DNA of 64,000 nt. Source: Planctomycetes bacterium UBA1662. Lineage in GTDB: Bacteria; Planctomycetota; UBA8108. This document shows positions 34,722 through 43,464 of the stretch, piece after piece. How positions within the stretch are numbered: position 1 is the first letter of the stretch; each line of letters starts with the position of its first letter. The translations under genes were made by a program, and so were the position numbers. The notes under the pieces are model-generated. The model was not told where the DNA came from, did no database searches, and saw nothing but the letters and a program-made list of their open reading frames with translations. The DNA lies in the NCBI GenBank assembly GCA_002320775.1, contig DCKY01000187.1, positions 7,161 through 71,160 of the forward strand. Reading direction: 5' to 3'.

Positions 34722-35047
34722 TTCTGATACCCTCCATGCTCTCCCATTGATGGGAATGCTAGTTTAGTTCTTCCCCCCGTCAGTTGTGTTACAAGCAGCG
34801 GTGGACTCCTCTTTTTCCCGCCTGAAAAGATCTGTCTCAGGGAATCTCCATCCCGACTGGAATGAGTCTTCCCCTGCAGGCAGGAAAGTCTTAACGCTGA
34901 AAGCACTTAGGAAGTATGCGGCAGATTTTAGTGTTTTTTTTATCGGTCGCAAGACAAATAGCTCGCTCCACTCCCAAGGAGCGGTCATCCACGCTTTCCA
35001 ACCGGCTGAAAACCCGCAGATTGACTGGCAATTGAGCCCATTTCAAG

Positions 35048-35301
35048 TCGGTAGCGCATTTGCGGGGAGATGTTACTCTTTAATAGACCGAGGGCCACGG
35101 TGGACGGGTATCCAGAGGGCCTGAAAGTATGTCGATAGCGCAGCTTTTTCATATCCAGAAGACGGAGCGACTGGCTTCGCCAGCCGCTCTGAGCTCCGTA
35201 GCGCAAAGTGCCAGCCGCGGTCACGGGAGAAATCTTGCCCGGGGCCTGGTTTTTCTCAGCGCCTATTTTTGCGTCTGGCTTTCGCTCAGCTCGGTAGCGC
35301 A
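35048..35301. repeat. Four dispersed copies of the 11-mer TCGRTAGCGCA (TCGGTAGCGCA x2, TCGATAGCGCA, TCCGTAGCGCA), spaced 84, 63 and 96 bp apart in a 600 bp intergenic region.
   Basis: The copies start at 35048, 35132, 35195 and 35291. They lie between the anti-sigma 3' end and the lipoprotein gene start. Confidence 0.6.
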
Positions 35302-35330
35302 CAGCTGAAGACCAGCGTCCGCGGATCGAC

Positions 35331-35798
35331 CTATTCGTCGAATCGGGGATCGAGCGGTTTGCGCTCTTTCTCTTCATCATCGTCATCGAGGGTTTTGATG
35401 CGAATCGGCTCCTCATCCGTGGTTTCCGCATAGTCCTTCCGCGGGTCGGCCGGTTTCTCCGAAGAGTTCGGGCCGGCGCTCAGGATGAAGAGTCCGATGA
35501 TGAGGATCGCCGCGAGGCCGGCCAGGGGAGCCAGCCAGCGCGGCCGGGAGCTGACGACAGCGAAGGGTTGGTTCGTTCCGCCCTCGCGGATTTCAGAGAG
35601 CATCTTTCGCCAGCGCTCCGCGCTGACCTCGGGCGGCCGGTCGTTTTTTGCGAGCCGGGTGAGCTCTTCCGCCTCGGCCGCCAGCTTCCGGTACTCTTCA
35701 GAGCCTGCGAGGTACCTCTCGACCGTTTCTCGCTGTTCTTCGGAGAGCTCTCCGTCGAGGTAGGGGCCCAGCAATCTGGTGAATTCTTCACGCGACAT
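35331..35798 (-). CDS. Anti-sigma factor (zf-HC2-like N-terminus lacking the Zn ligands, single TM).
   Basis: The block RLLGPYLDGELSEEQRETVERYL matches the anti-sigma N-terminal consensus. A TM helix (LAPLAGLAAILIIGLFIL) follows. The gene sits immediately downstream of the ECF sigma gene. Confidence 0.6.
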   Translation of the reverse strand: MSREEFTRLLGPYLDGELSEEQRETVERYLAGSEEYRKLAAEAEELTRLAKNDRPPEVSAERWRKMLSEIREGGTNQPFAVVSSRPRWLAPLAGLAAILIIGLFILSAGPNSSEKPADPRKDYAETTDEEPIRIKTLDDDDEEKERKPLDPRFDE

Positions 35799-35841: not shown

Positions 35842-36600
35842 TCAGCTGGGCCTGTAGCCCATGGAGCTGAGCGATTCCTGTAGTTTCTTCCGGGCGTAGA
35901 AAAGTCGAGACATTACGGTTCCAACGTTGCAACCCACGACCTCTGCAATTTCTTTGTAGGAGAGATCTTCAGATGTGTGGAGGACGAAAACAACCTGGTG
36001 TTTATCTGAGAGCGAGGAGATGGCTTGCTGCAGGTTCTCCCGGAGTTCCTGTTCCCGGGCATACTCAACCGGCGCCTGGGCCGGGGCTCTGCGAGCGGTA
36101 GGCTTTCCAAGGGCCTCCATGGCGGACTCTTCCATGCCGTGGAGGGGCCGGCTTTTGCGGCTGCGTGTAAAATCGATCGAGCGGTTGACAGTGATCCGAT
36201 AGAGCCAGGTGAAGAACTTGGAGTCGGTCTTGAATTTTTCGAGCGCCTGGTAGACACGGAGAAAAACTTCCTGCGCAACCTCGAGGGCGTCTTCCCTATT
36301 GCGTACAAAACGGAAAGAGATTCCGTAGACTCGCTGCCGGTATTTTTCGAAGAGAAATTCAAACGCGGCTTCATCGCCGGCAAGGAAGGCTTTCACCTTG
36401 AGAATGTCTTCGTTGTCGGAGGAGTCTCTCAATTTCTTTTTCCGGCGATCCAGGGCGGGTTGAATCGGGATGACAACGGCGCCACCTCGACGGAGTTCAT
36501 GGCGGACCTCCACCTCAACATGCGAGGGGGAATCAAAGGGTCCGCGCTGGCGTACCAACGTGCCGTCGATTGTAGCGGGGAGGAGTTGGGCTCTCATCAT
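35842..36600 (-). CDS. RNA polymerase sigma-70 factor, ECF subfamily.
   Basis: The region-2 block is FEFLFEKYRQRVYGISFRFVRNREDALEVAQEVFLRVYQ. The region-4 block is LSYKEIAEVVGCNVGTVMSRLFYARKKL. The N-terminal ~60 aa of the ORF may be an extension, or the true start may lie further in. Confidence 0.8.
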   Translation of the reverse strand: MMRAQLLPATIDGTLVRQRGPFDSPSHVEVEVRHELRRGGAVVIPIQPALDRRKKKLRDSSDNEDILKVKAFLAGDEAAFEFLFEKYRQRVYGISFRFVRNREDALEVAQEVFLRVYQALEKFKTDSKFFTWLYRITVNRSIDFTRSRKSRPLHGMEESAMEALGKPTARRAPAQAPVEYAREQELRENLQQAISSLSDKHQVVFVLHTSEDLSYKEIAEVVGCNVGTVMSRLFYARKKLQESLSSMGYRPS

Positions 36601-36723
36601 CTCTAATCTTTTGAAATATCAGTTCTCATTGAATACTGACGGATTTCCGCGGGTATTTATTCGATTTTCGGAAGGGGAAAATTCATCAGGGGGCCGATAA
36701 GAGATGACTCGGATCTTTTTTTA

Positions 36724-36752
36724 TTGACAGAAGGCGTACAGGCTTCTAATTT
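36724..36752 (+). promoter_or_regulatory. Canonical sigma70-type promoter: TTGACA, a 17 bp spacer, then TAATTT.
   Basis: The -35 hexamer TTGACA is at 36724..36729. The -10-like hexamer TAATTT is at 36747..36752, after a 17 nt spacer. No annotated ORF lies downstream before the terminator. Confidence 0.45.
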
Positions 36753-36758
36753 GCTTCT

Positions 36759-37139
36759 AATTAAACCGCTGCCCGAGAGGGCTAGTCAGGTTTTAGATAG
36801 AAGCGGGCTTTACTTAAGAGGAGCTTACGGCCCGTACGAAGAGAGGTTCGCGGTGGATGCGGACCCAGATAGAGAAGAAGAATAGAAGAGATGTATCCCT
36901 CGAAGACGGTTTTCACCGTCAGGGCCTGTGAGAGTGGTCGGTGGCTCGGTTCCTGGTCTCCAGTTGTAGGAGAACAGGCGCAGGCTCGAGGTGTTAGTTC
37001 ATAATCAATGTTAGTTAGATATTAGCGATTCAACCTACCCTTCCCTACACACCCCACTCGGTAGGTTCCTCCTTTTTCCTCGTTTATTTCAGACCCAAAC
37101 ACCTCCTCATCGAGTAGGGACGATGAGGAGTTTTTTATT
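36759..37139 (+). ncRNA. Candidate novel, unclassified ncRNA/sRNA of about 380 nt.
   Basis: The unit is bounded by the promoter above and the terminator at 37103..37139. No ORF of 60 aa or more lies inside. I checked by eye for RNase P, tmRNA and SRP/6S hallmarks and found none. Confidence 0.3.
37103..37139 (+). terminator. Rho-independent terminator.
   Basis: There is a perfect 10 bp stem, CTCCTCATCG / CGATGAGGAG, around an 8 nt loop, AGTAGGGA. It is followed by TTTTTTATT. Confidence 0.7.
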
Positions 37140-37211
37140 GCCCTCGTTTTTGCGGCCGGAGTTGCCGTGAGCACGAGAGGGCCTCTTTCCCGACGGTTTC
37201 CGTGGGGGTAG

Positions 37212-38687
37212 ATGATACGATACAGCCGTGGGCCAGCGGGGTTATTGCTCCGTAAACGTGGTCGAATTCTTGCGAATCCAACCCTCTGCGGAGTCCGGTG
37301 GATGCAGCTAGTGCGCCGCATAAAAGACGTCCTGTTTTCCGGTCCTCCCGAAGAGCTCACCGGTCCCAAGGGTGTCTTGGTCAAGGTTGGACGGGTGGTC
37401 TACCTCCTGGTGGGGAAATTTCGCAGGGATTTCTGTCTCGAGCGGGCGGCCAGCCTGACCTTCTATTCCATCATCTCGCTCATACCCATGACGGTGCTGT
37501 TTTTCAGCTTCGCCACCAAGTTCATGGGGGAGCGGGAGCGTATCAAGGAATGGTTTATTCTCAAGATACCGAAGCTGCTGGCGCCGGGGCAGGAAGAAAA
37601 AGTGAGCGCCTGGCTCAAGGAAGACATCGGCAGCGATGCCTTCCAATTGCCGGAGGACGCCAGCTGGCTGATGGATTTCACCGCTGTCTGCGGACTGGTC
37701 ATCATTTCGCTGGGAATATTCATCGCGGCCGAGAGGGTCTTCAACCACATCTGGCAGGTGGACAAGCGCAGGAACTATCTACAGCGGCTATTGGTTTTCT
37801 GGGTGATCCTGACGACGAGCCCTCTGCTTTTTGGAGCATCCCTCTGGGCTGAGGATATGTTGCCCACCGGCAGCCTGAAGTCTTTTTTCCAGGATTCACC
37901 ATACTTCGCGGCCTTTCTGGCCTTTCTCGCCTTTACCCTGCTGTACATCTTTATGCCGGCAACGAAAGTTCGGTTCCGCAGCGCCGTGGTCGGAGGGATC
38001 GTGGCCGCGATCCTCTGGCAGCTGGCCAAGTACGGCTTTCTCTACTACCTCGACCAGATTAATAACGTCACGAGGTTTTATAATAAGATCGCCGCCCTGC
38101 CGCTCTTTCTCATCTGGCTCTACGTTACCTGGATGGTGGTTCTCTGCGGCGCGCAGCTCAGCTTTGTTCATCAGAATCTTGCCGCCTTATCGCGAGCCAG
38201 GCGGACTCGTTTGGCTAGCGGAAAACGATCCCTCGCGCAGCTAGGCCTGCAGCTTCTCTACAGGGTCGGGGCCGCCTTCAGCTCCGGCGGCAAGGTCCCA
38301 TCTCTGGAGGCGGTGGCTACTGACCTCGGCCTCGAGGACAGCGAAGGTCTCGCAGAGGCCGCGTCTGTCCTGCTTCAGCAGAATGTATTATTAGGGGATG
38401 GATCGGGCGACGGCGGCTATGCCCTGGCGCGGGATCCGTCCCATATACGGCTCAAGCAGGTCATGGCGGGATTGCGAAAAGCTGAGTTTCCCGGAGAGAA
38501 GAACACGGTCGAATCGTCGGCTGGGAGTGATCGTGACCGGCCAGGCATCAACCGGCTTATCGCCTCGGCAAACGTTTCCTGGGAGGACACCTTCGAGTCT
38601 TTTACTCTGGCTGATATGCTGCCTTTAGAAGGGAAAAAGGCAGGATCGCAAATCATTTCTGTAGAACAAGATAGAGAGTCCGACTGA
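37212..38687 (+). CDS. YihY/BrkB family membrane protein with a C-terminal cytoplasmic extension.
   Basis: It has ERAASLTFYSIISLIPMTVLFFS and six TM helices typical of YihY. The C-terminal extension of about 190 aa is of unknown family. The likely start is the internal MQLVRRIKD. Confidence 0.75.
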   Translation: MIRYSRGPAGLLLRKRGRILANPTLCGVRWMQLVRRIKDVLFSGPPEELTGPKGVLVKVGRVVYLLVGKFRRDFCLERAASLTFYSIISLIPMTVLFFSFATKFMGERERIKEWFILKIPKLLAPGQEEKVSAWLKEDIGSDAFQLPEDASWLMDFTAVCGLVIISLGIFIAAERVFNHIWQVDKRRNYLQRLLVFWVILTTSPLLFGASLWAEDMLPTGSLKSFFQDSPYFAAFLAFLAFTLLYIFMPATKVRFRSAVVGGIVAAILWQLAKYGFLYYLDQINNVTRFYNKIAALPLFLIWLYVTWMVVLCGAQLSFVHQNLAALSRARRTRLASGKRSLAQLGLQLLYRVGAAFSSGGKVPSLEAVATDLGLEDSEGLAEAASVLLQQNVLLGDGSGDGGYALARDPSHIRLKQVMAGLRKAEFPGEKNTVESSAGSDRDRPGINRLIASANVSWEDTFESFTLADMLPLEGKKAGSQIISVEQDRESD

Positions 38688-38724: not shown

Positions 38725-41700
38725 TTGGTTTCAGAAAAGAATCAGGAAGACAAACAAGTGATAAAGTCAGGAACCGGGCACGAAGCAACAGGCCCATTTC
38801 CATTTCCTTCTAGTTTCCAGTTTCGCGAAGCTGAAAAGGCCACGCTCGAAGCTTTTTTCGAGAAGGTGTTTTTCGCTCAGTGCTTTACTGACGAGAAGCT
38901 CAAGGCCATCGATCGCATGCGCTGGAGGCCTGGGAAGGCCGAGTCGACTGAAGAGGTTGAGGCCGTCGAAAAGAGTTCGGAGGCCGCTCCGGACGCATCT
39001 TCCGAGGATGTTTCGTCTGTTGAGAAGCGGCCGGTTGTGGCCACTCCTTATGTCATGCTCTGCCGCGGGGCGGATGGCATAGGGAAGACGCGAATCTTTC
39101 GCCACCTGCGCGAGCGTGCCCAGGAAAAAGAAGTTTCGGTTTACGAAACACACAATTACGAGGTCGAGGGGATCCCGCTCAAGCCCTTCCTCCATACGAT
39201 TCGACGGATCATGCGCGACCTTGACGACAAGTCGGGTCTCGGCCAGGCGAATCAACGAGTCGGCTCGTCGCTGATCAACCGCTACCGCCATGCGCTCGAA
39301 AGTCTGATTCCCGAAGCTTTCGGCGATGTCGGGGCTTCCGCCGAGAATAGCTTGCTCAATTCAGAGAATTGGGAGGACGAGAAGGTTCGGATTTTTGATG
39401 GCATCACCCAATTCCTCCTCGAGGTTTCGGTCCACAAGCCCCTGCTGATCCTGGTTCACGACCTGCATTGGGCTGACAGAGCGACGGTCGAGCTGCTCAG
39501 GTATATCGGGCGCAATCTTCAGCTGAGAAACGAGGCCCTGTCGGCGGAGCATTCTTCGGCGGAAGGAGTCGATGCGGAGCAGGTAACCGAAGATTGGGAG
39601 AGACTCTCGGTTCACACAGATCTTGCCGCTGCCGAGACAGGCCAACTGGAAAAAGCCGAAGCAGTTGCGGGCGACGAAGAGAGCCCCCCTGAGACCTGGC
39701 CTTCCCGGTTGATGCTGCTTGCGAACTATCGCTCAGTTGATGAAGACTCAGGCGGAGAGAGCGACCGCGCCATCGAAAGCCTCGGGCGGGAGGACTTCAG
39801 CTTTCACGGTGAGCTTCGGCCTCTGCATCGGCAGGAGGCGCGGTATTTTCTCGAGAAGTCAATCGAGGGAGTCCAGGTGGGAGGTGAGGGGCTGGAGATC
39901 ACAGCCGACGCGGCGGATGCGGTGTTTGAATTATCCGAAGGGTTTCCGAGCTTTCAGCAGGAGCTGTTCCGGGGAGTTTTCCTGGGCAAGTCGAACCTCG
40001 CCTGCTGGAGCAGTGAGAGCTTCAGGGAATACGTTGACAGCGCTACCGGCGCGGGCGGTCTCGAATTATTAGAAGATGCTCCCGCGCGTCATCGTATCCT
40101 GGTGCGCCGCCTTGAAGATTATTTCTCTTCGGGCGAACAAGGGCGTTTGTCCAATGAGGCCCGGGTTCTGCAGGTCCTGGCCCTGGCCCGTCGGCCCGTG
40201 AGGAGTGACCTGGTGGGTCATGTCCTTGCATTGCAGGAGACCGCCTCCGGTGACGCCGAAGAGATGGCCGCGGCGACCGGCAAGCTCGGCCGCTTTTCAA
40301 ACGCCGAGGGAACCGAGAAGGTCGAGGCGATCCTGAGAACTCTCGAGCAGCGTGGAATCACAGCCCTCGCGAGCCCGGGAAAGTATTATTTCAGGCTTTG
40401 GGATTACACCCAGGTCGTGGAGGCGACGATTGAGCCCGAGGTCAGGACGCTCATTCATCAACGAATTGGTGAGGAATACAGGAGGCGTCTCGGCGAGGGA
40501 AACGGTGAGACCATCTCTACAGGCGAGGAGGTCTACGAGGTCTATCATCATCTCAGCCGGGGCAAGGAGTCATCCTCGGCGATGGAATTCGGTCTCGCGG
40601 CTGGGAATCGCTTTGAGCGGACCTTCGCGCTTCAGAAGGCGAGAGACCTCTATACCGAGATGGTCTCCCTTCTCACGGCGGAGGAAGAGCTGCCGGAGCG
40701 CCTGACGGTTCTCGGGCACCTGGCCAGGGTCCAGGCCACCCTTCGTGAACACGATGGCGCTCTTGAATCGCTCACGAGAATCAACCAGGAGGAGGCGGGC
40801 AGCCTGGAGCCTGCCGTCCGGATTAATCTCTACCTTCTGGAGGCCCAGGTGGTTGCCGCCGCTGATCCAGGCAGGGCGCTCAAGGTCCTGGCCAGGGCGC
40901 AGAAGATCGTAACCGAGGAGCAGAGTATCGAGTCGATCAGGGTCCAGCTTGAGGTGACCCGCTGCAGGATGCTGCGGCAGGACTGGAAGCGGACCATCAA
41001 TTACGGGCTCAAGGGCGCGGAGCAGGCGCAGAAGATTCCTGGCTGCGTCGAGCTGGGTATGTTCTATCGTTATGTCGCCCTCGCCTTTTACCGCAAGGGT
41101 GATTACGCCCACTCCCTCGATAATTTCCAGAGGGGTCTCGCTGTTGCTGAAGATCTCCAGAATTACTCCCTCACGGTGAACATCCTGGATGACCTGGGAA
41201 GGGTTTATCTCGAGAGGGGAAATCACTTCCGTGCCGCGCGGTACCTCTACAAGGCCCTCGAGATGCGTCAGCGGCAGCAGGATGTCGCCGGTCTCTGCAA
41301 ATCGTATGACCAATTGGGGCTGGTCTACCGCCGTGATGGTGACTACCACAAGACGATCGACAATCTCAGCCGCAGCCTGAACCTCAAGCTTCGAACGGGT
41401 GATTTCGAGGGACTCAACCCGACGCTGGGAACCCTGGGGGATCTTTGTTTCCGCCTGGGAAATTACCAGGTTGCTATCGATTATTTCAGCAAAGAGGTTG
41501 AGAACAGCAAGAAGGTCAAGGAGATCGAGGCCGATGAGACCGGGGGCCTCGCGGATGCCTTCGTGCGGATGGGACGTGTCTACTTTGAGATCGGCGATCT
41601 GAAGCAGGCGGATAAATTCTGCAAGCAGGTCCTGATCCTCGCCTCCGAGTTTCAGCTGAAATCGTACGAGGCCGATGCGCTGATGCTGGATGGAAACATC

Positions 41701-43464
41701 AAGGCTTACCAGCTCGACTGGAATCTCGCGGAGAAGAGCCTCAAGCAGGCGGCTGATTTCTATGGGAAGCTCGGTCATAGAATTCGCCAGGCCTGCGCTC
41801 TGCTTGACCTGGCCGAGGCGAAACTCGCCCGTGAATATTACGCCGAGGCTCTCAAGCTCGCCTCCAGGGCCCAGGTGATAGCCGAGGATGTAAGGGCTCT
41901 CGATGTTCAGGTGCGAGTCCTGACGGTTAAGGGGAACGTTCACAGGCACCTCAAGGGTGGAAATCCCGAGAAGGTTCGCGAGCAGCTCGGCAAGGCGATC
42001 GAGCTGAGTCAGAGGCTGAGCGATATCAGGGTTCTCTTCGACCTTTACTACGCGCTGGCAAAGGTCCATCACACAGACCGTGAGTTTTCCGAGGCCGCAA
42101 CCTATTACGGTAAGGCGGATGCGATCATTAAGCGGATCACTGAGCAGATGCCCGAGGAGCTGCGCTCCAGGTTCTCCGATGATCCCCGGCGCAAGATCTT
42201 CGTGGAGGATTTTCTCCGCTTTCAGAAGGAATCTGAGGCGAAGGGGCCGACCCTCGAGGGCCGTGACCGGACGGCATCCCACGGAGATCTCAGGGAGCGT
42301 CCGGTGGGCTCCGATGATTACAAGGGCTTGCTGGAAAGCGTACTCTCGATCAATAGCAGGATGAACCAGCTGGACTTCCACCAGGCCTGTCTTGACGAGG
42401 CCCTGGAGCTGACCGGGGCCGAGCGCGGCCTCATCATGGTGGTTAATGAGCGTCAATACGCGACCGTAGCTTCAGAAGGCTTTGGAGATGACTTTGCCGC
42501 ACATCCAGAGGCCTCCTCGGCGAGCCAGCTTGCCGAAGAGACCATTCGCCGCGGCCGCGGGTCTTACAGCAGCGGCGGTGAAGAGGAAGGTCACGGCAAG
42601 ATGAGGCCCCTCAAGGTCCTGCGGGACCGCTCCGTTCTCGTGATCCCCCTGAAGACGGAGGACAGGGTCCTTGGCAGCATCTATCTCGACCGGCTGAACT
42701 CTCTGGGTTCTTTTACTCCCAGGCACCAGGTGCTGCTGGAGGCCTACGCTCTCCAGGTCGCTGTCGTTCTTCAGAACCGCCGCCAGCTTGATGTGGCGAT
42801 CCGTGAGCCGGTCACGGGGTTTTATACGCCCAGCTACTTCCTTGACCGTCTCCGCGATGAATACAGGCTCTTCAATCTGCATGACAAGTCCTTCTGCCTG
42901 GCGGGCTTCTATCTTCCCGTGCTTGAAGATTCCGTGGGGGAGACCCAGAGCGGTCTCGGGGACAAGCTGGCAAAAGAGATTGCCTCGGTCGCCAGCGGAG
43001 CGATCGTTTGCTGGGGTAACCCGGTTCTCTACCTGCTCTTTCGGGATACAGACCTGGGTATCGCGGAGCAATACACCATCAGGGTACAGGAGAGACTGCA
43101 GGACCTGCTCGGCGAGGATGTTCCCTACGAGGCGCTACCGGTCGAGCGCCGCTACCAGCTGGGTTCGGATATTTATTTTGATCTGCGCCGCAAGCTGCTT
43201 CCCGAAGAGTGCGATCACAAGACGCTCACGGATCTTCGCCAGATCCTCGCCAAGGATGTAAAGCTCAAGGAGGCCAAGAAAATCCTGGAGCGCCAGATTA
43301 TCGAGAGCACCCTGCGTAAGACCAACGGCAACATCACCCATGCCGCGCGGGAGCTGGGAATCCATCGTCCCCAGCTCTCCAACTATCTGAAGAAATACGG
43401 ACTGAACAAAGAGCGCTTCGAGAGCTCGATTGACACCTCACGCATCTCCCCGATAGAGAACTGA
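38725..43464 (+). CDS. Giant cytoplasmic regulator (1579 aa): P-loop NTPase (AAA/STAND-like), TPR array, GAF, degenerate GGDEF, Fis-type HTH.
   Basis: It uses a TTG or nearby start. The Walker A is GADGIGKTRIF. Multiple TPR repeats include YAHSLDNFQRGLAVAED and YHKTIDNLSRSLNL. The GAF domain is LELTGAERGLIMVV...VLVIPLK...LGSIYLDR. The GGDEF-like domain starts EPVTGFYTPSYFLDRL, but carries VCWGNP in place of RYGGEEF. The C-terminal HTH is ITHAARELGIHRPQLSNYLKKYGL. Confidence 0.8.
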   Translation: MVSEKNQEDKQVIKSGTGHEATGPFPFPSSFQFREAEKATLEAFFEKVFFAQCFTDEKLKAIDRMRWRPGKAESTEEVEAVEKSSEAAPDASSEDVSSVEKRPVVATPYVMLCRGADGIGKTRIFRHLRERAQEKEVSVYETHNYEVEGIPLKPFLHTIRRIMRDLDDKSGLGQANQRVGSSLINRYRHALESLIPEAFGDVGASAENSLLNSENWEDEKVRIFDGITQFLLEVSVHKPLLILVHDLHWADRATVELLRYIGRNLQLRNEALSAEHSSAEGVDAEQVTEDWERLSVHTDLAAAETGQLEKAEAVAGDEESPPETWPSRLMLLANYRSVDEDSGGESDRAIESLGREDFSFHGELRPLHRQEARYFLEKSIEGVQVGGEGLEITADAADAVFELSEGFPSFQQELFRGVFLGKSNLACWSSESFREYVDSATGAGGLELLEDAPARHRILVRRLEDYFSSGEQGRLSNEARVLQVLALARRPVRSDLVGHVLALQETASGDAEEMAAATGKLGRFSNAEGTEKVEAILRTLEQRGITALASPGKYYFRLWDYTQVVEATIEPEVRTLIHQRIGEEYRRRLGEGNGETISTGEEVYEVYHHLSRGKESSSAMEFGLAAGNRFERTFALQKARDLYTEMVSLLTAEEELPERLTVLGHLARVQATLREHDGALESLTRINQEEAGSLEPAVRINLYLLEAQVVAAADPGRALKVLARAQKIVTEEQSIESIRVQLEVTRCRMLRQDWKRTINYGLKGAEQAQKIPGCVELGMFYRYVALAFYRKGDYAHSLDNFQRGLAVAEDLQNYSLTVNILDDLGRVYLERGNHFRAARYLYKALEMRQRQQDVAGLCKSYDQLGLVYRRDGDYHKTIDNLSRSLNLKLRTGDFEGLNPTLGTLGDLCFRLGNYQVAIDYFSKEVENSKKVKEIEADETGGLADAFVRMGRVYFEIGDLKQADKFCKQVLILASEFQLKSYEADALMLDGNIKAYQLDWNLAEKSLKQAADFYGKLGHRIRQACALLDLAEAKLAREYYAEALKLASRAQVIAEDVRALDVQVRVLTVKGNVHRHLKGGNPEKVREQLGKAIELSQRLSDIRVLFDLYYALAKVHHTDREFSEAATYYGKADAIIKRITEQMPEELRSRFSDDPRRKIFVEDFLRFQKESEAKGPTLEGRDRTASHGDLRERPVGSDDYKGLLESVLSINSRMNQLDFHQACLDEALELTGAERGLIMVVNERQYATVASEGFGDDFAAHPEASSASQLAEETIRRGRGSYSSGGEEEGHGKMRPLKVLRDRSVLVIPLKTEDRVLGSIYLDRLNSLGSFTPRHQVLLEAYALQVAVVLQNRRQLDVAIREPVTGFYTPSYFLDRLRDEYRLFNLHDKSFCLAGFYLPVLEDSVGETQSGLGDKLAKEIASVASGAIVCWGNPVLYLLFRDTDLGIAEQYTIRVQERLQDLLGEDVPYEALPVERRYQLGSDIYFDLRRKLLPEECDHKTLTDLRQILAKDVKLKEAKKILERQIIESTLRKTNGNITHAARELGIHRPQLSNYLKKYGLNKERFESSIDTSRISPIEN

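Follow-up and report, generated by a model that had tools for sequence, protein, structure and literature searches.

What is specified by the intergenic region 36601-37211, which lies between a minus-strand gene for an extracytoplasmic function (ECF) sigma factor and a plus-strand YihY/BrkB gene, is the question raised by a 64,000-nucleotide (nt) stretch of contig DCKY01000187.1 from Planctomycetes bacterium UBA1662; this stretch, at its full length, is termed the window. An earlier reading of its letters alone, referred to here as the original prediction, had proposed a transcription unit with a promoter, a terminator and no sizeable open reading frame (ORF), the product being either a regulatory small RNA (sRNA) or a cis-acting leader for the gene beginning at 37212. 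Its proposal of a novel noncoding RNA is supported by the promoter, the terminator, the lack of a conserved ORF, the compensatory changes and the lack of an Rfam match, and comparative sequence analysis shows the unit to be a genuine noncoding RNA gene, not described before, which represents a new family in uncultured marine Planctomycetota. The function favored here, with a probability of about 0.45, is that 36759-37139 specifies a stable structured regulatory RNA whose functional core is its 3′ end and which most likely base-pairs in trans.

Relatives were assembled in three ways. A YihY protein search led to six GTDB genome loci, all from marine Planctomycetota metagenome-assembled genomes (MAGs; e.g. 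UBA8108, UBA1146), with YihY identity of 91-92% in four and 56-57% in two. An exact 20-mer from the unit led to eight metagenome loci, and YihY homologues at 35-75% identity to fifteen further contigs. The unit recurs in about 20 of these genome and metagenome loci of Planctomycetota. The arrangement is one where the ECF sigma gene and then the anti-sigma gene are transcribed in one direction, and the RNA and then yihY in the other. The RNA is single-copy in every locus that keeps this arrangement, one copy is also found in each of the loci that are cut off inside the RNA, and neither the window nor the relatives' loci contain another. It has a fixed place in a conserved neighborhood of four genes. 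It is absent from four yihY loci without an ECF neighbor (L022, L027, L028, L029). Widening the family with spurious ORF translations of its most invariant block yielded one Tara match and nothing else.

The -35 hexamer TTGACA, the 17-nt spacer and the -10 hexamer TAATTT are all present, on direct reading, where they had been placed. The description of this promoter as textbook holds for the perfect -35 and the spacing, but is slightly generous to a -10 that agrees with consensus at only half of its positions, which is also why a consensus promoter scanner did not list it. TTGACA is unchanged in the 13 alignable homologues and in L020, and is TTGACG in L023 and L026. The -10 of homologues is variously TAACTT, TAACCT, TAATGT, TACCTT or TATGGT, with TAnnnT at 17-nt spacing being conserved. 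On both strands of the 64 kb there is one match to TTGACA-N17-TAnnnT, against 0.03 expected from shuffles.

At the other end, the perfect 10-base-pair (bp) hairpin and its T-tract TTTTTTATT are also where predicted, and a terminator scanner lists them. This is the sole perfect hairpin of at least 8 bp with a T-rich tail on either strand of the whole window (0.18 expected), and intrinsic terminators seem rare in this genome. Relatives conserve it, L023 having a compensatory exchange of U-A for C-G; every homologue retains a T-rich tail, although those of L024 and L026 are interrupted. Promoter and terminator are retained in relatives in the correct orientation and at the correct spacing, the region 3′ of the terminator is not conserved, and the RNA described by these signals would be strongly promoted and efficiently terminated. 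From its signals we infer that the transcript is expressed, starting near 36759 and ending at 37139, and the predicted size of ~380 nt agrees with that span.

The last ~110 nt (37029-37139) form a 3′ module composed of an 8-bp hairpin, H1, a ~35-nt C/U-rich single strand and the terminator. Its identity is 100% among loci with flanking coding DNA at 91-93% or at 70-77% identity, and likewise among those with yihY DNA at only ~70%. Overall, its last ~100 bases have hardly changed between genomes in which the neighboring proteins share just 37-60% of residues. In the more distant loci its identity is 99% in L020 (YihY 44%), 93% in both L023 and L024 (YihY 41% and 37%) and 89% in L026 (YihY 38%). 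Taken alone, it folds into H1, an unpaired strand and the terminator in all four variants tested, with z of -2.0 to -3.1. The H1 stem is invariant in all homologues. Across them, down to YihY at 37% identity, the linker strand differs only in its final base, which is G instead of C in L023 and L024, and in having 1 nt inserted before that base in L026. Besides the stem, the invariant parts are the strand CCUCCUUUUUCCUCGUUUAUUUCAGACCCAAACA, UCCCUAC in the H1 loop and GUAGGGA in the terminator loop. Constraint of this strength on ~100 nt implies that it serves an important interaction.

Two properties of the module bear on what that interaction might be. UCCCUAC and GUAGGGA form seven of seven pairs in all five distinct 3′ modules, the rest of the H1 loop being variable, and so a kissing interaction between the H1 and terminator loops is a candidate, though one that covariation cannot prove since neither segment varies. 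The linker carries UUCCUCCUUU and is followed by ACACCUCCUC, the last bases of which open the terminator stem; both resemble the anti-Shine-Dalgarno sequence of 16S ribosomal RNA (rRNA). From a practical perspective, it is also pertinent that five independent metagenome contigs (L007, L015, L017, L018, L025) begin or end inside the module, probably because assembly graphs break at sequence shared exactly by co-occurring genomes.

The transcript, with its remaining part, the 5′ domain, was analyzed with an RNAalifold structure for 13 distinct sequences, the controls being the same structure with partners slid. The paired fraction of cells is 95.4%, as compared with 43-53% after sliding; two-sided, i.e. 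compensatory, changes are seen in 12 pairs (3-7 in the controls) and in 35 cells (5-11 in the controls). Conservation and covariation in related genomes, which the original prediction had named as a means of checking it, were therefore both found. Five local hairpins, P1-P5, are supported, with compensatory changes in P1, P3, P4 and P5 and one-sided changes only in P2. P1 is capped by GAGA, which is GCAA in the clade of L013, L016 and L019, and the P2 loop displays an invariant Shine-Dalgarno-like AAGAGGAG (36816-36823). A purine block of the GAGAAGAAG type is found again in L020, L023 and L024, the 5′ domains of which cannot otherwise be aligned, and L020 also keeps GUGGUCGGUGG of the G-rich block between P4 and P5.

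Helices joining the 5′ domain to the 3′ module were also proposed by RNAalifold, and were not accepted as their partners are either invariant or changed on one side only. One of these pairs the G-rich block with 37050-37059, where invariance of both sides precludes covariation and the pairing is not better than that of shuffles. When the 5′ domain is paired with the linker, or with the loop of H1, duplex energies have z near 0, relative to dinucleotide shuffles, in most homologues.

In overall sequence the 5′ domain is 88-92% identical where the flanking genes are 91-93% identical, and ~72% identical where they are 70-77%. It is unalignable in L020, L023, L024 and L026, and with a domain of ~210-500 nt the whole RNA is ~325-620 nt. 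It thus appears to drift like neutral or weakly constrained sequence. Its purine tract contains ARN-type GAGAAGAAGAAUAGAAGAG (36872-36890), and this, together with UUUAUUU in the linker and the U6 tail, constitutes a set of Hfq-type sequence features, in resemblance only; the tract may be likened to the ARN motifs of Hfq-type ligands. At the position of this tract L024 has three tandem UCCGGAAGA-type units (L024:2185-2232). The strand AAUGUUAGUUAGAUAUUAG immediately 5′ of the module is possibly a processing site.

Whether the unit is instead translated merits attention. The claim that it lacks any ORF of 60 or more amino acids (aa) is right for ORFs wholly inside it, but a 120-aa minus-strand ORF (37022-37384) overlaps its last 118 nt. 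That ORF has no Pfam match, and its length, start and frame are not conserved in relatives; a Pfam search of all local ORFs yielded no match for those inside the unit. Another candidate is a 37-aa plus-strand ORF, 36891-37004. All 13 homologues that can be aligned keep its AUG, preceded by a purine-rich tract, and resemble one another over the first ~7 codons (M-Y/F-P-S-E/K-A/T-V). However, its length toggles between 13 and 36-38 aa by 1-nt indels (it is 13 aa in L002, L008, L010, L013, L016 and L019), the C-termini in other homologues are unrelated, the AUG is missing in L020, and the substitutions within it are the compensatory stem changes of hairpin P4. Close relatives have indels of 1, 2, 4 and 7 nt within two plus-strand ORFs, with consequent shifts of frame. 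As for a short peptide from the 3′ module, no ORF there is consistent on either strand, with frame, start and length differing among loci, and the identity of the module at all codon positions argues for selection at the level of nucleic acid. A small protein as the product is accordingly most improbable, and on these comparisons coding is excluded for the unit.

Selection on nucleic acid could also be on DNA, e.g. an operator, enhancer or recombination site, with the likeness to a promoter and terminator being incidental. The location, in a divergent regulatory region beside an ECF sigma operon, a YihY gene with an Rrf2-like tail and the gene for an HTH_8 regulator, is one where such an element might be sought, and an invariant block is by definition invariant on both strands. 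But invariance over ~100 bp is far beyond the needs of a protein binding site, and the block is not palindromic. The hairpins upstream of it show the strand-specific G-U wobble and compensatory changes typical of RNA, the orientation and spacing of promoter and terminator are conserved, there are no copies elsewhere, and plasmid and phage collections have no match. A DNA-level element is hard to credit on this evidence.

The RNA matches no recognized family. No Rfam 15 family overlaps the unit at E<=10 in the window, nothing in the 64 kb scores as high as the gathering threshold of any family, and five divergent homologues are without a match at E<=5. ARAGORN found neither transfer-messenger RNA (tmRNA) nor tRNA. 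The exact core has no match in viral contigs and there is no similarity to the plasmid or phage collections. A literature search for the sequence, and for sRNAs of Planctomycetes, found nothing relevant.

For an RNA with these properties a mechanism can be suggested. Transcription would be from a sigma-70-type promoter and end at the strong intrinsic terminator, with the 3′ module being the active part, its two loops able to kiss via 7 bp. The exposed strand, with UUCCUCCUUU and then ACACCUCCUC, would bind target mRNAs by pairing at their purine-rich ribosome-binding regions, the resemblance to anti-Shine-Dalgarno sequence making this the simplest mechanism. The 5′ domain would serve for structure or as a precursor, and read-through of the terminator probably feeds yihY transcription as well. 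Action in trans, the seed, processing and read-through are all features that we infer.

Several results weigh against trans pairing. The search for targets covered the 64 kb and flanks, which is a small part of any genome. Within it, with the invariant core and the H1 loop as queries, the best duplexes on either strand of the 64 kb have -42 and -23.6 kcal/mol, which shuffled queries equal. In six loci, complementarity at the starts of the genes for anti-sigma, ECF sigma, YihY and the large regulator is at background. With E. coli 16S, 23S and 5S rRNA serving as proxy for universally conserved rRNA segments, the longest complementary run is 15 nt, which is in the range of shuffles and falls in a variable region. 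An sRNA that acts purely in trans would not usually stay in such tight synteny with yihY over so much divergence, and the short distance to yihY in L023 and L024, considered below, favors a role in cis. Further, every base of the 35-nt strand, both stems and the terminator loop are invariant, which is more than a simple seed needs.

The last point is relevant to the prospect that the RNA binds protein or is catalytic, i.e. that it is the RNA subunit of a ribonucleoprotein (RNP), a protein decoy or a ribozyme, with the module as a folded recognition surface. Constraint base by base on stems, loops and linker is what is seen in RNAs that contact conserved macromolecules. The possible loop-loop contact, the GNRA-capped P1 (GAGA to GCAA), the size of 325-620 nt and the lack of detectable target complementarity are all compatible with it. 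On the other hand the 5′ domain varies more than a conserved catalytic fold would allow, and of the ~110 nt that are conserved two-thirds are predicted to be simple hairpins or unpaired, so that this prospect is considered unlikely. A more specific variant, to be regarded as speculative and about as improbable, has the module not as an ordinary sRNA seed but as two kissing hairpins that present a 35-nt anti-Shine-Dalgarno-like strand to a dedicated protein or to some cellular machine that is conserved universally. The RNA would then be a component of a regulatory RNP that is new and specific to Planctomycetota. Candidate partners would be the translation-initiation apparatus or the products of the cluster that comprises the ECF sigma, YihY and AAA-TPR-GAF regulator genes.

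The alternative that deserves most attention is the other half of the original prediction, a cis-acting 5′ leader or attenuator of yihY, perhaps also of the large AAA_16-TPR-GAF-HTH_8 regulator gene. Transcripts would begin at the TTGACA promoter, the invariant terminator would stop most of them, a factor (protein, RNA or ribosome) reading the linker and loops would set the level of read-through into yihY, and the ~380-nt RNA would be a by-product. In every RNA-bearing locus, down to 37% YihY identity, the RNA is immediately upstream of yihY and co-oriented with it, with gaps of ~37-185 nt. In L023 and L024 the conserved YihY start is ~37-55 nt 3′ of the T-tract; this leaves no room for a separate promoter, and transcription of yihY there must depend on read-through or on signals within the RNA gene. 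In the window, a scan detected no sigma-70-like promoter between the terminator and yihY.

The pattern of conservation is nevertheless the reverse of that of a riboswitch: the 5′ part that would be the sensor is unalignable and varies from ~210 to 500 nt, and it is the terminator, ordinarily at liberty to vary, that is invariant, loop included. No conserved antiterminator alternative was found, the proposed pairings of the 5′ domain with H1 and linker being without two-sided covariation and long-range 5′-3′ pairings being no better than those of shuffles, and the sequence 3′ of the terminator, as mentioned, is not conserved. The leader is judged a possible though rather doubtful sole explanation. 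It and the trans-acting RNA are, as originally proposed, the two leading readings, and sequence does not separate them; the proposal did not choose between them, and the two roles are not mutually exclusive. The regulatory RNA that pairs in trans is retained as the preferred reading, with the features in its support and those of the neighboring genes located as follows.

Features of the RNA gene and its neighbors in the window (minimum free energy, MFE)
Feature	Position	Strand	Remarks
zf-HC2 anti-sigma gene, after ECF sigma gene	35331-35798	minus	
ECF sigma gene	35842-36600	minus	Sigma70_r2/r4 domains
T7 tract, possibly UP-element-like	36716-36722	+	directly 5′ of -35; T-rich tract kept in all close and mid-distance homologues
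-35 hexamer TTGACA	36724-36729	+	read in sequence
17-nt spacer	36730-36746	+	
-10 hexamer TAATTT	36747-36752	+	TATAAT match 3/6 (T1, A2, T6)
Primary transcript, ~380 nt (predicted)	36759-37139	+	start placed from the -10; end at T-tract
P1, 5′-terminal hairpin	36763-36793	+	4 compensatory pairs (C-G to A-U, G-C to C-G)
P2, hairpin GCGGGC/GCCCGU	36803-36835	+	95.6% of cells paired; one-sided changes only
P3, hairpin	36845-36865	+	2 compensatory pairs
Purine tract GAUAGAGAAGAAGAAUAGAAGAG, (ARN)n-like	36868-36890	+	
P4, hairpin GACGG-UUUUCA-CCGUC	36905-36920	+	A-U to G-C compensatory change in 5 sequences
Invariant G-rich block GAGAGUGGUCGGUGGCUC	36930-36947	+	complementary to CACCCCACUC in H1 loop
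P5, hairpin CCUGGUCUCC...GGAGAACAGG	36952-36978	+	2 compensatory pairs; one-sided wobble changes in 5
A/U-rich single strand AAUGUUAGUUAGAUAUUAG, just 5′ of 3′ module	37007-37025	+	nearly invariant
H1, hairpin, stem AACCUACC/GGUAGGUU, 20-nt C-rich loop	37032-37067	+	MFE and centroid in four divergent variants
UCCCUAC, in H1 loop	37042-37048	+	complementary to GUAGGGA in terminator loop, 37114-37120
C/U-rich linker CCUCCUUUUUCCUCGUUUAUUUCAGACCCAAACAC with anti-Shine-Dalgarno-like CCUCC	37068-37102	+	unpaired in all folds
Intrinsic terminator hairpin	stem 37103-37112/37121-37130	+	10 perfect pairs (6 G-C), 8-nt loop AGUAGGGA
T-tract TTTTTTATT (UUUUUUAUU), T6/U6 tail	37131-37139	+	terminator scan
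YihY/BrkB gene	longest ORF from 37212; conserved start 37302	plus	weak Rrf2-like tail

The identity of the neighbors as a sigma/anti-sigma operon and a YihY-family gene, on which the original prediction was correct, was confirmed by domain matches. Its 700-bp gap is accurate if measured to the conserved YihY start (701 nt), and not if measured to the longest yihY ORF (611 nt). That conserved start, from alignment and from all homologues (458-461 aa), is the ATG at 37302 (MQLVRRIKD...), so the true distance from terminator to yihY is ~160 nt. The C-terminal extension of YihY/BrkB (residues 388-470; 38373-38621) has a sub-threshold match to the winged-helix regulator Rrf2, at 29.5 bits with a cut-off of 30, and an Rrf2 match is also precomputed for several YihY homologues. 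After yihY is a 1579-aa ORF, 38725-43464, with homologues that have AAA_16, TPR, GAF and HTH_8 domains. It is part of the same conserved gene block as the RNA: a protein of 1570-1600 aa with these domains follows yihY in most of the RNA-bearing loci that have downstream sequence, but not in L023.

The divergent side of the intergenic region has features of its own. Upstream of the ECF sigma gene is an ECF-type promoter motif, GAATAA-N15-CGTC (36638-36662, minus strand), so that the RNA promoter is back to back with it, ~60 nt apart. At the equivalent place GAATA[AC]-N15-16-CGT[CA] is present in L013, L016, L020, L023 and L026, and L005 has the near-match GAATAA-N16-GTCA. The motif suggests autoregulation of the sigma operon. 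The possibility that the RNA itself is driven by the neighboring ECF sigma factor was considered and rejected, as in the 64 kb GAATA[AC]-N15-16-CGTC occurs only before the sigma gene itself. Between the divergent promoters is a block, CCGATAAGAG (36694-36703), that may be a regulator binding site and is kept, as CGATAAG or near variants, in L005, L006, L013 and L016.

A different type of observation is for the gap of ~600 nt downstream of the anti-sigma gene (34722-35330), where conservation is close to that of coding DNA: 93-96% identity in close relatives, and 68-78% over 405-446 nt in distant ones. It includes a 59-aa plus-strand ORF, 35129-35308, and L016 has a called 59-aa gene at the equivalent place, the two being 38% identical with E = 1e-9 in this single comparison. 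The gap may hold an unannotated small gene or another RNA.

Regulation by RNA has, to our knowledge, hardly been described in Planctomycetota, and MAG lineages of the UBA8108 and UBA1146 type, which are marine, are uncultured. With ~100 nt unchanged at 57% identity of a neighboring protein, the RNA is among the most constrained sequences that might be expected in such genomes. It yields a covariance model and a 34-nt near-invariant tag with which the clade can be found in metagenomes, and it offers an explanation for recurrent contig breaks at the locus. It also connects, in a testable manner, a YihY/BrkB membrane protein with an ECF sigma module and with a giant AAA-TPR-GAF regulator.

Parallels with known RNAs are of several sorts. 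Like tmRNA, RNase P RNA and 6S RNA, the RNA is ~380 nt with a strong promoter and has a part that is very highly conserved. But ARAGORN recognizes no tmRNA, Rfam has no match at E<=10, and there is no tRNA-like end, P4-type core or rod with a central bubble. With OLE, ROOL, GOLLD, raiA and HEARO it shares a length beyond that of typical sRNAs, covariation, confinement to one lineage and discovery by comparative genomics; it differs from them in matching no Rfam model and in having only its 3′ third conserved across the family. Its position directly 5′ of a co-oriented gene, and its intrinsic terminator, are those of attenuating leaders and riboswitches, yet in it the sensor side is variable and the terminator invariant, no Rfam riboswitch matches and no conserved antiterminator was found.

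A further parallel is with the C/U-rich, anti-Shine-Dalgarno-like sRNAs, cyanobacterial Yfr1 and RsaE/RoxS, which are 55-120 nt in total. They too have an ultraconserved unpaired pyrimidine-rich motif between two stem-loops, and the CCUCC and UCCC of the present RNA would suit ribosome-binding sites. The motif here, though, is ~35 nt and within an RNA of 325-620 nt, there is no homology, and target complementarity is not above background. The enterobacterial sRNAs ArcZ, MicL, SdsR and RprA are processed from long primary transcripts that vary, except for a conserved 3′ end, and in ArcZ, MicL and SdsR only that 3′ end is conserved and active. The Planctomycetota RNA is from another phylum and unrelated to them in sequence or by Rfam, and its near-invariant ~110 nt exceed a seed plus terminator. 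Nevertheless it resembles them in having its own promoter, a 5′ part that varies, a conserved 3′ part with hairpin, unpaired strand and U-tailed terminator and, just 5′ of the conserved part, an A/U-rich stretch that is a candidate cleavage site.

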